A stretch of 64,000 nt of DNA, taken from positions 71,641 through 135,640 of the forward strand of contig JAPPNP010000051.1 in the NCBI GenBank assembly GCA_028873795.1, given 5' to 3'. Positions 32,194 through 41,542 of this stretch are shown piece by piece. The stretch comes from Chloroflexota bacterium. GTDB taxonomy: Bacteria; Chloroflexota; UBA11872. The notes below the pieces were generated by a model. The model made no database searches. It saw only the letters and a program-made list of their open reading frames with translations, and was not told the origin of the DNA. Every line of letters starts with the position of its first letter. Position 1 is the first letter of the stretch. Position numbers and translations under genes: made by a program.

Positions 32194-32238
32194 CGGCTAG
32201 GCGAACGCTCGGCGCCGCCGAGGGTTCGATTGGGCGTC

Positions 32239-32264
32239 GTGGCGGTGGACTCGACCGCCGCCAC
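32239..32264. terminator. Hairpin GTGGCGGTGG-ACTCGA-CCGCCGCCAC between convergent genes
   Basis: Inverted repeat read directly; lies between stops of 4xCache gene (32193) and permease fragment (32389). Confidence 0.35.
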
Positions 32265-32388
32265 GGCGCCCTCTAGCGTTTCCTCCCGCTAGCTCGGATC
32301 GGCCGGCGTGTGCGGAGCGCCTAGACCCACCGAGGACGGTCGCGGTCTGGGAGGCTTGGGGCCGCCGCCGCCGGCATGCGGCCGGAGC

Positions 32389-32949
32389 CTATTGCTCCAC
32401 CCGGCACGTGATGACATCGACGCCGTGGTACTTGCGATGGTGGACCGAGGACGCGAAGTGCCGGAGAAGCCTGGTCGACAGTTGCTCCGCGTCGTCGAAT
32501 CCGGCGTGGTCGCTCACCAGAGCGAGTTGATCTTCGATATTGCCGTCGATGTCTTCACGCGAGTAAACCACCAGCTCGACCTCGGCGGCGTCGCCGTCCG
32601 CGTGCACCGAGGCCACCAGCCGGCGCCGGTGGTCGGCCTCAGCGTCGCCGCCCTGCTCCAATAGCGTGAGCACGGCTTCCTCAACCGCCAGGTTGAGCCG
32701 GGTTTGCGCCGACTCACTCCACTTGTTTTGCGACGCAAAGCGATTCAAGAACGCGCCGATGTCCGCCAGCGCCGCATGGGACAAATCTGCCTGCATCTTT
32801 CGAGGCCAGAGTCCACGAAACTCCGTGACCGCTGTCATCACGATCGCGGTTACCGCGCCGAGGATCACCGTGTTCCCGACCAGCTCACTCCAAATGCCGT
32901 CACTCAACTGGCCGATGCTTCCCGCCGACAGGCCGAGCACCAGCGACAC
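32389..32949 (-). CDS. Permease C-terminal part (two TM helices plus ~130-aa cytoplasmic domain); continues the upstream fragment in the same frame
   Basis: Hydrophobic N-terminus continues the TM domain of 32977-34101 across an in-frame TAG. Confidence 0.45.
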   Translation of the reverse strand: MSLVLGLSAGSIGQLSDGIWSELVGNTVILGAVTAIVMTAVTEFRGLWPRKMQADLSHAALADIGAFLNRFASQNKWSESAQTRLNLAVEEAVLTLLEQGGDAEADHRRRLVASVHADGDAAEVELVVYSREDIDGNIEDQLALVSDHAGFDDAEQLSTRLLRHFASSVHHRKYHGVDVITCRVEQ

Positions 32950-32976
32950 ACCGGTGATGACCGATTTTCGATTGTT

Positions 32977-38501: not shown

Positions 38502-39409
38502 TTCACACCTCCACCAAGACGGCCTTGCACGAGCCCATCGAGACCAGCCGGGGGGAGCCCTCTCGTCCCAGCCGGCCGCTGCGGTCAGCCCCGATTCCAT
38601 CGGCGTCGGTATGGTACCGATGCCAATGTATGAATGCAAGGTTCGTTATGACTGTCCAGAAGAGTGTTGATCTACCGGTACTTTTCTATCGACTCGCAAC
38701 GGGGATCAGGCAAGCCTAGTCGCCGACGCTCCGCGACATAACTCAACGCCGATGGCGAATTCTCAGAATGACGACACCTCACGTCGTCGTATCGCCTGGT
38801 CAGACGCGCGACCAGAATGATCCGGGCGACATGCACCACGGTCTGGGAGTTTCGGTCTCGTACGGCGGTCGAGGCTGGCGGTGATTTGGAGCCGTACCAA
38901 ATGGCGCACCAACGTCTCGGGGACCGTGCCCCGCGTGCTGAGCGGACGTGCGGCGAATTCGATTCATTGTGCGGATGTAGTCGGCCATTCCGCGTCGTCA
39001 CGTCTGGGCTCTGACTCGATACGGGCGCCTGCGGCGATGGCCCGATCGCGGCGGCAGCCGGCATCGGCCCGGTCACCGAGGTCCCTCTGGTCAATATCGA
39101 CGTCATCCTCGGAACCGAGGCGGCCTTCCAGGATGTCGCTCACGCCGACGCAGGCCGCGGGGCAACCGCATTCCCGCTCAAAGGACGGTTCCGCTAGCAG
39201 GATCTCCGAAGTCTCATCGTCACCGCGGAACGCCCCGCGGCCTCAAGTCCGACCGGCCGGCGGCCGAAACGGAATGAGCCCCCTTGCTTCGTAGGTTTTC
39301 ACGCGGCCGTCGGCAATCGGCAGACTTGGGCTCGAGCTAGTCAGCCTCACAGCTCCCGGGTCCAGCCCTATTCGAATGCGGCCCGACATCCGGACGAGAA
39401 TTGTGCGGC

Positions 39410-40045
39410 TTAGTCGTTATCCAGCAAACCGTTGCGCACGGCCCAGACAACCATTTCCTGTCTCGACTTCGCCCCCAACTTGTCACGGATGCTGTAGATG
39501 GCGTTCCGGATCGTCAGCGGGCGATTTCCTCTGGCGTCACCAATCTCCGCATACGACTTACCCTCGGCAAACAGCTTCAGAATCCCCTGCTCCCGCTTGG
39601 TTAGCCGTGCCAATTCGGTCGAGCCAGCCTCGCCCGGAGTATCACGGACGCCGGCGAAGGCTCGCCGAACCACATCACCAGGCACGCGAAACTCGCCGGC
39701 GGCAACGTCACGGATCGTGGCGAGCAGTTCGTCCTTCCCGGTGAACTTCTGCAGATACCCCGTGGCACCAGCGGCAATGGCGTCGACCACGGTGTTTTCG
39801 TTGGTCGACGCGGTCAACACGAGCACACGAGTTCCAGGCACGGAAGCCACGATTTCGCGGCAGGCGTCGACGCCGTTTTTTAGCGGCATGATTACGTCCA
39901 TGATTACGACGTCAGGCTTGAGACTCTGGGCCACATCCACGGCCTCAATGCCGTCCCGAGCCTGGCCCACGACTTGGAAATCTTCGGATCGCTCCAGCAT
40001 CTCCTGCAGGCCGTCCCGCATGATGGAGTGATCGTCTACGATCAT
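39410..40045 (-). CDS. Two-component response regulator, NarL/FixJ family (REC + LuxR-type HTH)
   Basis: MIVDDHSIMRDGL receiver N-terminus, Asp/Lys receiver residues, C-terminal LuxR HTH (LTKREQGILKLFAEGKSYAEIG); start may extend to 40165. Confidence 0.75.
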   Translation of the reverse strand: MIVDDHSIMRDGLQEMLERSEDFQVVGQARDGIEAVDVAQSLKPDVVIMDVIMPLKNGVDACREIVASVPGTRVLVLTASTNENTVVDAIAAGATGYLQKFTGKDELLATIRDVAAGEFRVPGDVVRRAFAGVRDTPGEAGSTELARLTKREQGILKLFAEGKSYAEIGDARGNRPLTIRNAIYSIRDKLGAKSRQEMVVWAVRNGLLDND

Positions 40046-40085
40046 GACGCTGGTCGGTGGGCTTGCAGGCAAGGCGGAGACCTCC

Positions 40086-41372
40086 TCAAGTTCGATCGTA
40101 CTCGACTTCGCACGTAACAATTGTGCCCCTTCCGCTAGTCCCGGACTCAACGTGAAGCCAGCCATTGATTCGCTCCGCGTTAGCCCGCATGTACCGGAAG
40201 CCGTGGCCCCGTTCCGCATAGTCCGCCGGAAGGCCGATGCCATCGTCGGACACCGACATTCGCAGCCGCTCCTCTCGAAAATCGAGAGCGACCGACACCC
40301 TGCTGGCGCGGGCGTGCCGCAGCGCGTTCGTCAGTGCATTGTGCGCGATCGAAAACAGCCGACTGCGGGTAACCGAGGGCAGCACCGGTTCCTCGCCATA
40401 CTGCACTACATCGGCCGGTATGGACGCGATGGTCTGAAACGATGCGGCGTGCACTTGCAACACACGAGTCAACGACCTTCCCTCGAATATGAGACTCACG
40501 TCGATCGGATGCCGCAGTTCCCACATTGCCGATCTGGAAAGCGCCGACGTCGCATCCAGCTTGGCCACCATCTCCGAACTCGTTTTCTCCGCCAATTCTC
40601 GCGCCGAGTCGATGCCAATACCAATCATGTACACCGACTGCGCCGTCGTGTCGTGAATGGTCTGTGATAGCTCGATTCGCTCTCGTTGTAATTCTCGCTC
40701 TCGCTTCACGGCACCCTGCCTTCGCATCCTCTCAGCCTTCGCAAGCAAATTAACCGACGCAACGACCGCATACATAATCACAATCCTTCCGAACAGCACC
40801 TTTTCTTCTTTGGCCTCGAGGTCGAGCCCTGATCCGGCTGTCAGGCATGCTATGGCATAGCCGCTCGCCACCACCGATGTCCACACAAAACTCAGTCGGA
40901 AAGACCCGAAGAACACCGCGAACCAGGCCAGCGACGGGTAGTATAGAAGATAAAATAGATTGTGGTTTAATCCTCCACTCACTGCGGTGCCGGCCGTTAT
41001 GATGACGACGTCCAGCACGCTAAGGCCGAGCATCCAGCGCAAGGTCACTGAAGGACCGGAAACAACTCGATAGTGGACCACACCGTTTACTATCGCAAGC
41101 AGCGCAAGAAAGCCAATGTAGAACGAATAGGTAAACACGGTAAATGTTGGCCGATAAACCAATTCAATAATGCTTGCAATATGAAGGAACCACCGAACCC
41201 AAACAAAGACTTTCGCCGGGTATCTGAGCTCCTCGGGCTCCGTAGAGTACGGGTGCCAATGATGCACTGCACCCGCTTGAGTCACGGCGTCCAGCAGCCG
41301 CTTTGCTCGACTTCTGGAGGTCGATTCAGCGCGCGACGACCTCCCGTGAACGCCGTGCTCTTCAGCCTGCAA
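40086..41372 (-). CDS. Membrane sensor histidine kinase (HisKA_3 + HATPase_c, NarX/LiaS-like)
   Basis: Six TM N-terminal domain; HisKA_3 region (QTIHDTTAQSVYMIGIG), HATPase N/G boxes. Confidence 0.75.
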   Translation of the reverse strand: MQAEEHGVHGRSSRAESTSRSRAKRLLDAVTQAGAVHHWHPYSTEPEELRYPAKVFVWVRWFLHIASIIELVYRPTFTVFTYSFYIGFLALLAIVNGVVHYRVVSGPSVTLRWMLGLSVLDVVIITAGTAVSGGLNHNLFYLLYYPSLAWFAVFFGSFRLSFVWTSVVASGYAIACLTAGSGLDLEAKEEKVLFGRIVIMYAVVASVNLLAKAERMRRQGAVKRERELQRERIELSQTIHDTTAQSVYMIGIGIDSARELAEKTSSEMVAKLDATSALSRSAMWELRHPIDVSLIFEGRSLTRVLQVHAASFQTIASIPADVVQYGEEPVLPSVTRSRLFSIAHNALTNALRHARASRVSVALDFREERLRMSVSDDGIGLPADYAERGHGFRYMRANAERINGWLHVESGTSGRGTIVTCEVEYDRT

Positions 41373-41542
41373 TCCGATTCTCGTTTCCGTTGTTCATCAC
41401 ACAGACTCCTGCCGACATGGGCGGGGCAGGATGGCATTGACCGCCGGAACACAGGCAGTCCATTCGCTTGGTCGATGGCGACGGAGTTTTCGGCGTTCCC
41501 AACATCCGAACCGCACAGCAGGGAGATATATACAGACTGGTA

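Follow-up and report, generated by a model that had tools for sequence, protein, structure and literature searches.

We analysed a 64,000 nt stretch of a contig from a Chloroflexota bacterium (hereafter the window, to whose positions all coordinates refer). Its variable part (approximately 35957–41754), directly upstream of a GntR operon, encodes two ankyrin-repeat proteins, which we call ANK-D and ANK-E, together with a NarL-type response regulator and a HisKA_3-type sensor histidine kinase. We estimate at roughly 0.55 the probability that this is a clade-specific accessory module of sponge-associated Chloroflexota, in which ankyrin proteins are linked to a sensor and are carried in a hypervariable interval beside the GntR operon. 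The order kinase, regulator, long non-coding leader and ankyrin gene recurs in diverged genomes, the genes are under purifying selection and short boxes are conserved in the non-coding parts; in the window, the segment is bounded by direct repeats and its presence varies among relatives. An initial annotation of this DNA had taken the whole of 32200–41400 for one accessory island. A variable, repeat-bounded segment with both ankyrin genes and the two-component system is indeed present, but 32200–41400 is not a single unit: what appears by eye to be one island is a mosaic of core genes, a strain-specific insertion (the low-GC stretch at 34.2–34.8 kb) and an old repeat-bounded module.

The window was compared with loci from relatives (L003–L023), which were found by protein searches and look-ups plus a scan of one genome per species. 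L009 is a 3.3-Mb contig of a long-read relative with 96–97% nucleotide identity to the window and L022 is a circular 3.83-Mb contig, while L003 (GntR side) and L008 (Cache side) both come from COS3_bin_17, in which the two flanks of the interval lie on one contig. Every relative that is named or has a traceable record belongs to the Chloroflexota, and sponge metagenomes are the source of several of them. The MKWU01 contigs among these records belong to an Aplysina aerophoba sponge metagenome, and two record names suggest a sponge link as well, namely ROBB21-1, the record of ENA assembly ERZ23495468 that contains the window, and NGUY21-1 (ROBB21 being read as Robbins et al., 2021). A second, independent (Logan) assembly of run SRR10996925 holds the same genes as the window, and an assembly artefact can be ruled out, as the layout is reproduced both by this assembly and by L009.

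The kinase gene (40086–41372, minus strand) matches Pfam HisKA_3 (31.1 bits, with a cut-off of 24) and HATPase_c (48.2 bits), and the H-box IHDTTAQ is readable in its translation. The gene for the NarL/LuxR-type regulator (39410–40072, minus strand; Response_reg 97.8 bits, GerE 36.9 bits) has its real start at 40072 within an open reading frame (ORF) of 39410–40243. Only 13 nt separate the kinase stop from this start, and we therefore consider the two genes to be an operon. The regulator gene is followed by a leader of 905 bp and by the ANK-E gene (37248–38504, minus strand), for which the real start is the ATG at 38504 within the ORF 37248–38639. After a spacer of 274 bp comes the ANK-D gene (36221–36973, minus strand). 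A further ORF at 36987–37232 (81 aa), called as a gene in one assembly, is Gly/Ala/Arg-rich with an atypical GC content by codon position and matches no family, and was treated as non-coding.

In L021 a tRNA-like element is followed by the genes for the kinase (79% identity to that of the window) and the regulator (90%). After a leader of 797 bp comes an orthologue of ANK-E that is full-length and has both N-terminal domains (87%), and then Cas9 and methyltransferase genes. The Cas9-type gene (L021 14108–17332; Cas9_a, HNH_4 and RuvC_III) lies directly downstream of the ANK-E orthologue and is convergent with it. In L022 the kinase (80%) and the regulator (87%) are followed by a 510-bp leader and a putatively exported ANK orthologue, behind which lie an insertion sequence (IS), an additional ANK gene and the orthologue of ANK-D (73%). 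All of these genes lie within a segmental duplication (7085–9684 versus 17088–20441 and 16075–16885 versus 20507–21317), comprising genes for a D-Glu cyclase, an acetyltransferase and ANK-D with copies that are 83–94% identical; in unit one the kinase, the regulator, ANK, the IS and the extra ANK lie between the acetyltransferase and ANK-D, and they are absent from unit two. Kinase–regulator adjacency is kept in L009, L021, L022 and L015–L017. Orthologues of the kinase form more than 30 clusters at 76–82% identity, in which the small number of entries with a named source are given as Chloroflexota. The initial annotation had suggested that the kinase/regulator pair and a class-V aminotransferase could regulate the block. 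The pair is physically linked to the putatively exported ANK gene in four assemblies that stand for three diverged lineages, but the aminotransferase is an enzyme (SufS/CsdA-like) and there is no ground for giving it a regulatory role.

One may ask whether these genes are simply chance neighbours in a stretch prone to deletion and rearrangement, the kinase/regulator pair and the ankyrin genes being unconnected and the repeats being leftovers of duplicated pseudo-tRNAs. This would fit with the differing content of the interval in relatives (about 23.6 kb between the two flanks in COS3_bin_17 and unrelated genes in L004–L006), with the occurrence of ANK-D without the two-component system and with the other neighbours of distant kinase homologues. 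Yet the order kinase, regulator, leader, putatively exported ANK is kept in L021 and L022 despite wholly different surroundings (Cas9 and methyltransferases in the former; an acetyltransferase, a D-Glu cyclase and an IS in the latter), and the leader boxes are conserved at a dS of about 0.7. We judge chance neighbourhood to be improbable.

Comparison with L021 and L022 gave dN/dS ratios of 0.13–0.17 for the kinase (dS 0.73–0.92), 0.11–0.14 for the regulator (dS 0.48–0.49), 0.10 for ANK-E (dS 0.66) and 0.25–0.33 for ANK-D (dS 0.38–0.55). The kinase, the regulator and ANK-E are thus under purifying selection. The codon usage of the kinase and the regulator deviates from the window mean by 3.6 and 1.6 standard deviations (sd), respectively, whereas ANK-E (about 1 sd) and ANK-D (0.8 sd) are near native. 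The kinase has a GC content at third codon positions (GC3) of 0.65, compared with about 0.85 in neighbouring genes; since this value is 0.64–0.69 in L021 and L022, the low GC3 is not a sign of recent arrival. The milder deviation of the regulator is likewise of equal size in these two loci. Recurrence of the module in diverged genomes under purifying selection and with conserved boxes supports a dedicated sensor and disfavours a recent foreign import. The recent acquisition proposed in the initial annotation is unlikely given the near-native codon usage of the ANK genes, the stable composition of the kinase and the selection on the orthologues; the module appears to be old within the clade.

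Both ankyrin-repeat proteins of the initial annotation were recovered with Pfam Ank families. ANK-E is composed of a putative signal peptide, two two-cysteine domains of about 70 aa, Pro-rich linkers and six 33-aa ankyrin repeats; its Pfam matches (Ank_2 112.4 bits and Ank_4 111.6 bits, above the gathering thresholds) cover residues 230–418 approximately and no others. The N-terminus, MRRFLGALVCAGIVAAISAGVAAA followed by QNYEG, starts with MRR, continues with a hydrophobic stretch and reaches AAA before the Q, and reads as a signal peptide. A signal-like N-terminus of this kind is kept in all ANK-E relatives and across the family of proteins that share its N-terminal domain. The twin arginines are invariant, so that export might proceed via Tat rather than Sec.

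The N-terminal domain (NYEGEDFC...LRELGYTV) occurs in two copies in ANK-E, each followed by a Pro-rich linker. As the copies share about 93% of their residues while their DNA is no more than about 78% identical, both are maintained. The domain has no match in Pfam or NCBIfam, no relative in the PDB by profile search and, for its fold, no Foldseek match against the PDB with E < 0.001; its unannotated status is a matter of these family and structure searches and not of a literature search. In the AF2 model (pLDDT 86.5) it consists of a long N-terminal coil and two helices. The family comprises 106 clusters at 90% identity, with 72 representatives at 50% among 1.84 billion proteins, and its named members are all proteins of Chloroflexota metagenome-assembled genomes (MAGs). 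The domain always lies directly behind the signal peptide and is followed by a linker and then by a varied C-terminal part, namely ankyrin repeats, a GmrSD_C nuclease with or without Excalibur, a trypsin-like or SprT-like domain, DUF4352, SH3_3 or unknown β-rich domains. The conserved signal peptide and the nuclease, protease and other cargo suggest that the family is extracellular and modular, and we regard the domain as a putative interchangeable extracellular module for anchoring or targeting. In L022 (12509–13555), the ankyrin core of ANK-E is flanked at both ends by a two-cysteine domain of about 55 aa (WPTTC[VI]DLNDIVENHLG...FGWAF) and not by NYEGEDFC. Small extracellular modules have thus been exchanged, it seems, around an ankyrin core that is itself conserved.

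A conserved N-terminal module in front of variable C-terminal domains, including nucleases and peptidases, is also what characterizes polymorphic toxin-type proteins (PMC3482391). The family could accordingly be imagined as a Sec-exported, polymorphic toxin-like one marked by the N-terminal domain, in which ANK-E would serve in conflicts between bacteria, either as a cargo variant or as a decoy, and not in host interaction. This architectural likeness is accompanied by fusions of the module (up to 94% identity) to a GmrSD_C nuclease, a trypsin-like and a SprT-like protease, one family member being found among AbiE, relaxase and transposase genes. Unlike polymorphic toxins, however, the ANK-E family has only a Sec/Tat-type signal and a 70-aa domain, no immunity genes or immunity-gene pattern were recognized downstream, many cargos are non-toxin (DUF4352, SH3_3 and ankyrin) and ANK-E is conserved as a whole (87% identity, dN/dS 0.10) rather than shuffled. 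A role in antagonism seems highly improbable to us.

ANK-D contains four or five repeats (Pfam Ank_2 82.9 bits, Ank 67.6 bits). According to hydropathy, it has a hydrophobic N-terminal helix (residues 5–35) and a hydrophobic C-terminal tail, LDEIIGGVICIFTLGVGC, which is nearly invariant in the L003 homologue (83–84% identity) and matched no known sorting-signal model. The proposal that one ankyrin protein is membrane-anchored (ANK-D) and the other secreted (ANK-E) thus agrees with our hydropathy profiles and reading of the sequences. Eukaryotic-like ankyrin-repeat proteins have reportedly been described in sponge symbionts by Nguyen and coworkers in 2014 and by Reynolds and Thomas in 2016; surveys exist for Chloroflexi (PMC6306507) and for MAGs more widely (PMC8163846). 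Such proteins are more abundant than in free-living relatives. ANK-E resembles sponge-symbiont ankyrin proteins in its multiple repeats, its putative export signal, its probably sponge-associated bacterial hosts and its presumed binding to host proteins with an effect on phagocytosis. It differs from them in its two unannotated N-terminal domains, in the conserved two-component system and long leader that accompany it and in its repeats, which carry an AIWRGH motif in place of TPLH..A..GH. Ankyphages, attributed to Jahn and coworkers in 2019, are said to supply ankyrin proteins in the sponge virome, where they would weaken immune reactions or phagocytosis by eukaryotic cells. They are likewise concerned with secreted ankyrin proteins in the sponge holobiont, but here there are no phage genes in the segment and no close relative in IMG/VR. 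A phage origin was rejected, as IMG/VR gave no match for ANK-E and a single partial match of 41% for ANK-D, and PHROGs gave none for the 90-aa ORF described below or for the genes flanking the module in L021.

The N-terminal half of the kinase is multi-spanning, with about six helices by inspection and no large extracytoplasmic domain by hydropathy, and this membrane domain matched no Pfam or NCBIfam family at the thresholds used. The best NCBIfam match of the kinase is MadS (77 bits, with a cut-off of 500), with MctS and LiaS-type kinases also appearing and no equivalog cut-off reached; the best matches of the regulator are of the NarL/MadR type and are also below cut-offs. The pair resembles LiaSR, DesKR, MadRS and NarXL in having a HisKA_3 and HATPase_c kinase, a REC and GerE regulator and an operon adjoining a putative target gene, and is unlike them in its scores far below the equivalog cut-offs, its unmatched membrane domain and its adjacent ankyrin genes. 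Two-component systems of the LiaS, DesK and MadS kind usually control adjacent envelope genes. The module could hence serve envelope physiology, with a stress sensor of this kind and with ankyrins whose target would be the envelope of the bacterium itself rather than the host, where they might act as extracytoplasmic scaffolds or chaperones. The multi-spanning kinase N-terminus without a large external loop, the likeness to MadS, MctS and LiaS-type kinases and the seeming attachment of ANK-D to the membrane at both ends speak for this, and Pseudomonas aeruginosa AnkB is reportedly a membrane or periplasmic ankyrin protein with a physiological role. The NCBIfam scores are nevertheless very low, the named relatives and traceable records are Chloroflexota, several of them from sponge metagenomes, a habitat where ankyrin expansion tracks host association, and the N-terminal domain that ANK-E shares with secreted nucleases and proteases points to the exterior. 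We therefore consider an envelope role to be unlikely.

The leader between the regulator gene and ANK-E (38505–39409, minus strand) is present in every copy of the module, with a length of 510–908 bp. Homology to the L021 leader reaches 155 nt upstream of the ANK-E start codon (blastn). The proximal 200 nt or so are conserved, with ATAGAAAAGTACCGGTAG at 38672–38689 and GGACAGTCATAACGAACCTTGCATT at about 38630–38657, and the blocks that survive in them across the three lineages are TAGAAARRTACY and ACAGTC...AACGAACCTTGCAT. The region upstream of the kinase (41373–41754, minus strand) contains the blocks GTGATGCTAAGGTAAC (41576–41591) and AAGTACCAGTCTG (41533–41545), which are conserved in three lineages; the parts surviving divergence are GTGATGCTAAGGTAAC and (A)AGTACCAGTCTG. 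A TAYYRGT-like core is found in five of the six regions and forms part of the palindrome TACCGGTA in the ANK-E leader of the window. The conserved boxes of the leader are candidate promoter/operator sequences.

Six-frame fragments of the ANK-E leader gave no Pfam match, and no Rfam family matched the leader. A structured RNA was rejected, since RNAalifold on four sequences gave no covariation support. Seven of the eight differences between the window and L009 within 39091–39349 fall in one codon phase; a hidden gene in the 908-bp gap was nevertheless rejected, since no open frame fits, the GC content by position speaks against a gene and the bias towards one phase does not reach significance when all 15 differences are counted. 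The divergence between the window and L009 is 1.7% in the leader (38505–39409) and 1.0% upstream of the kinase (41373–41754), compared with a synonymous pS of about 0.08 in the flanking genes. As only the proximal ~200 nt can be aligned with L021, deep conservation is not the whole explanation for the low divergence of the leader; recent recombination is an alternative cause of the low non-coding divergence from L009.

As to the location of the module, comparative synteny shows that the Cache–permease–aminotransferase block is conserved, being syntenic in six assemblies of related Chloroflexota, and that 35957–41754 is variable. After the aminotransferase gene, L008, L010 and L013 contain genes for an unknown protein of 376–511 aa, an OmpR-type two-component system and a hybrid kinase, and L023 also contains genes other than those of the window. 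The 9 kb upstream of GntR differ in each of L003–L006. Among the relatives at this locus, only L009 shares the layout of the window, which is thus absent from close relatives.

Two direct repeats of 27 nt in the same orientation delimit a segment of 5.6 kb (approximately 36111–41757). The left repeat, CCCGGTGCAATCCCGGGTATGAGCTCC (36084–36110, minus strand), lies between the aminotransferase and ANK-D genes, and the right repeat (27-nt core at 41758–41784) is part of a tRNA-like relic (41755–41880, minus strand; defined by alignments). The repeated part corresponds exactly to the T-arm and 3′ acceptor strand of the tRNA-like element, and its left and right copies share 23 of the 27 positions in the window and 25 of them in L009. 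Over the 326 kb of the window and loci, the 27-nt motif (at most five mismatches) was found at both ends of the segment in the window and in L009, at 8601–8627 in L003 and nowhere else. The relic has the T-arm CCCGG-TTCAATT-CCGG and a 3′ acceptor strand; further copies occur in L003 (3710–3823 and 8598–8741) and in L021 (9225–9345), and the copies of these two loci end in CCA. In L003, a segment of 4.9 kb (3697–8598) flanked by relic copies contains an ANK-D homologue, a sulfatase and a GMC oxidoreductase gene. L006 shares the ABC-transporter genes that flank this segment and has neither the segment nor the two repeats.

The relic is not a tRNA according to ARAGORN with default settings in the window, L003, L009 and L021, nor does it match any Rfam tRNA or tmRNA family at E ≤ 10; a permissive search of 41300–42150 gave just two matches at chance level. 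Relaxed ARAGORN settings yield inconsistent anticodons across the copies (Thr, Pro and Thr), so that a canonical tRNA was rejected, and the consensus fold lacks a D-arm and has a non-conserved anticodon loop. Throughout the 64-kb window there is no tRNA (ARAGORN default) and no Rfam family at gathering thresholds. L005 does have a genuine tRNA-Leu(GAG), but this gene bears no relation to the relic. The tRNA gene belongs to a stretch upstream of GntR in that locus (285–8500) and is followed there by the gene for a 1181-aa protein, taken as nuclease/helicase-like from its N-terminal sequence alone, an ADP-ribosylglycohydrolase-like gene and other defence-like genes. Pfam searches of all ORFs of the segment and of six-frame fragments of the gaps (E ≤ 1) revealed no integrase, transposase or remnant. 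The integrase or tRNA that one would look for at the ends of an island was accordingly found neither by ARAGORN and Rfam nor by the six-frame Pfam search.

The repeats and the relic look like the scar of a site-specific integration at a tRNA 3′ end, and the scar reads as an old one because no integrase or remnant is present. Like tRNA-associated genomic islands, the segment has direct repeats matching the T-arm and 3′ acceptor strand, a full-length element at one end with a short copy at the other and a variable presence in close relatives; unlike them, it has no mobility gene, a relic instead of a tRNA, a length of only 5.6 kb and a mostly native composition, and the same repeats flank other cargo in L003. 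Put otherwise, of five features of a tRNA-targeted island we found variable presence and direct repeats, we found neither a functional tRNA nor a mobility gene, and the composition is mixed. A recently acquired mobile island, in which an integrase acting at a tRNA imported the whole 32.2–41.4 kb from a foreign donor, is an improbable origin. The tRNA-like 3′ end in the repeats, the variable presence and the deviating codon usage of the kinase and regulator would be expected of it, but the permease and aminotransferase belong to the syntenic core, the codon usage of the ANK genes departs from the native one by about 1 sd at most, the kinase shows its low GC3 in L021 and L022 as well, and the divergence of the orthologues (dS 0.5–0.9), under purifying selection, is that expected for vertical descent within the clade. 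In L021 and L023, the module lies on the same contig as the Cache locus, about 40 kb away, where a long variable stretch comes to its end. This suggests another possible history, in which the lineage of the window and L009 may have undergone a deletion of the stretch between the aminotransferase gene and the truncated left repeat copy.

The remainder of 32200–41400 consists of core genes and of an insertion. The conserved left flank ends with the gene for a multi-Cache-domain protein (30094–32193, plus strand; Pfam sCache_2/dCache_2), which lies outside the module and has orthologues of 86–90% identity with the same neighbours in L008, L009, L010, L013 and L023. It shows internal nucleotide repeats at 31050–32010 (68–74% identity, off-diagonal blastn), which fits with tandemly duplicated Cache modules. 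Synteny with L008, L010 and L013 begins at about 20–23 kb in the window, continues through the Cache, permease and aminotransferase genes and ends at 35956, and L023 has the same order of these three genes. As the synteny runs through the aminotransferase in the relatives, this gene and the permease gene are core genes. The aminotransferase gene (34761–35930, minus strand, within the ORF 34761–35948) codes for a class-V aminotransferase or cysteine-desulfurase-like enzyme (Pfam Aminotran_5, E = 1.8e-58), with SufS/CsdA-like matches in NCBIfam that remain below cut-offs.

The gene for an NCS2 (xanthine/uracil-type) permease with a C-terminal cytoplasmic domain occupies 32389–34101 on the minus strand (Xan_ur_permease in Pfam, 32977–34101, and NCBIfam). 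Its interruption, noted in the initial annotation, is real and is due to a single in-frame TAG at 32977–32979, which is specific to the window among the orthologues compared. The frame continues past the TAG through 32389–32949, with hydrophobic helices and the 186-aa C-terminal domain after the stop. The orthologues in relatives are intact (557–567 aa), and the truncated product of 374 aa is also found in the Logan assembly of the same run. The match of the L009 permease reaches the end of the NCS2 model; that of the window product breaks off at model position 345–361 approximately, so that the complete 14-helix NCS2 core is not present in the window, the TAG removing the last helices and the C-terminal domain. 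The window gene is a pseudogene or truncated allele, in which a nonsense codon has disrupted the permease of this strain. For the 186-aa C-terminal domain (32389–32949), the only match is HATPase_c_2-like and, at 18.7 bits, too weak to reach the cut-off; the domain is conserved in all orthologues, and such a fusion is unusual for the NCS2 transporter family.

Alignment with L008, L009 and L010 shows that a low-GC sequence of 585 bp (34181–34765) specific to the window replaces a permease–aminotransferase spacer of about 135 bp. It is absent even from the 96–97% identical L009 and includes the lowest GC content of the window (0.487). Its ORF of 90 aa (34237–34509, minus strand) has GGAGGA as its ribosome-binding site, encodes a single hydrophobic segment and was also predicted as a gene in the Logan assembly. 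The codon usage of this ORF deviates from the window mean by 5 sd, and searches of Pfam, NCBIfam and PHROGs gave no match. The idea that the insertion is a repeated or mobile element was rejected, as neither the window nor any fetched locus contains another copy and convincing terminal inverted repeats are lacking. The insertion is a strain-specific event, separate from the ankyrin module.

Several features of the layout described in the initial annotation were borne out. All credible genes between the Cache gene and GntR, both on the plus strand, are on the minus strand, and the non-coding gaps are real (34102–34760, 38505–39409 and 41373–42106), their six-frame fragments giving no Pfam match. 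So are the two GC dips, with a minimum of 0.487 at 34301 and about 0.567 at 38650 (300-nt windows; overall mean 0.660, sd 0.042). A further dip that had not been listed, and is equally deep, lies inside the kinase gene (0.493 at 40951). Elsewhere in the window, GC falls sharply to 0.53 at 15901–16250, in an intergenic stretch between 15944 and 16430. Two BPD_transp_1 ABC permease genes at 60551–62702 (GC 0.56–0.57, GC3 0.66–0.74) are the strongest codon-usage outliers after the kinase and the 90-aa ORF.

On the other side of the module, the conserved right flank begins with the gene for a GntR/FCD regulator (42107–42931, plus strand; Pfam). Synteny starts at 41755 (L003) or at 42037–42073 (L004–L006) and extends over more than 11 kb at 87–89% nucleotide identity, comprising GntR and an ABC-transporter and hydantoinase operon. 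The scan of one genome per species found the solute-binding protein 3′ of GntR in four Chloroflexota MAGs, with proteins that are 92–98% identical.

On the left flank, the DAO oxidoreductase and M19 dipeptidase genes are 18 nt apart (28914–28933) in the window, L009 and L010. In L008 (6056–8431), L013 (6079–8244) and L023 (5945–8005), a gene for an RCC1/WD40-like β-propeller protein of 686–791 aa, another eukaryote-like repeat gene, lies between them. The toxin–antitoxin pair adjoining the DAO gene also varies (27072–27759 in the window, 4028–4709 in L008, 6316–6968 in L010 and 2835–4018 in L013), being RHH/FitA-like with PIN in some and PhdYeFM with PIN, in the opposite orientation, in others. 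This site is a second small variation hotspot.

A number of points weigh against a sensor-linked ankyrin module. Its linkage is drawn from three diverged lineages only; kinase/regulator homologues (47–58% identity) in L015–L017 are not beside ANK genes, and both L003 and unit two of the L022 duplication have ANK-D while lacking the kinase, the regulator and ANK-E. The signal-peptide and topology calls were made by eye and from hydropathy only, and the TAYYRGT-like candidate operator was defined once the six regions had been looked at, one of which does not contain it. Integration is only one reading of the repeats, the relic fails every tRNA test and the segment holds no integrase or remnant. 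Finally, the L021 site may be the same neighbourhood as the Cache locus and not an independent insertion site.

With these points in mind, we still favour the sensor-linked module, for which we infer the following chain of events. The multi-spanning kinase, having no extracellular sensor domain, would detect a cue in the membrane or envelope and phosphorylate the NarL-type regulator. The latter would bind the conserved boxes that precede its own operon as well as those in the long leader of ANK-E, and ANK-E, and probably ANK-D too, would be switched on. ANK-E would be exported via its signal peptide, with the six ankyrin repeats placed outside the cell behind the two lineage-specific N-terminal domains, whereas ANK-D would stay anchored in the membrane. 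The ankyrin surfaces might then bind proteins of the sponge host, as proposed for sponge-symbiont ankyrins that interfere with phagocytosis. Ankyrin proteins are a well-known trait of sponge symbionts, are enriched in sponge Chloroflexi and are thought to block phagocytosis (PMC6306507, PMC8163846). In the literature searched, we found no description of a two-component system coupled to sponge ankyrin genes.

Ankyrin-repeat proteins count as textbook symbiosis factors of sponge microbiomes and raise two questions: how they leave cells that for the most part have no effector secretion systems, and whether their production is regulated. Most sponge MAGs lack classical secretion systems, and the export route of ankyrins is therefore unclear (Robbins et al., 2021; PMC8163846). 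The locus described here offers a concrete handle on both questions, with a plain putative signal peptide and a domain shared with extracellular enzymes on the one hand, and a kinase/regulator pair and a leader travelling along with the ankyrin gene on the other. It is tempting to go further and to suppose, tentatively and with more doubt than confidence, that the N-terminal domain is a lineage-specific export or surface-anchoring module for diverse cargo and that the two-component system makes ankyrin display conditional on a host-derived membrane cue. If this is true, the module would constitute a regulated, secretion-system-independent delivery route for eukaryotic-like proteins in Chloroflexota without classical effector secretion systems.

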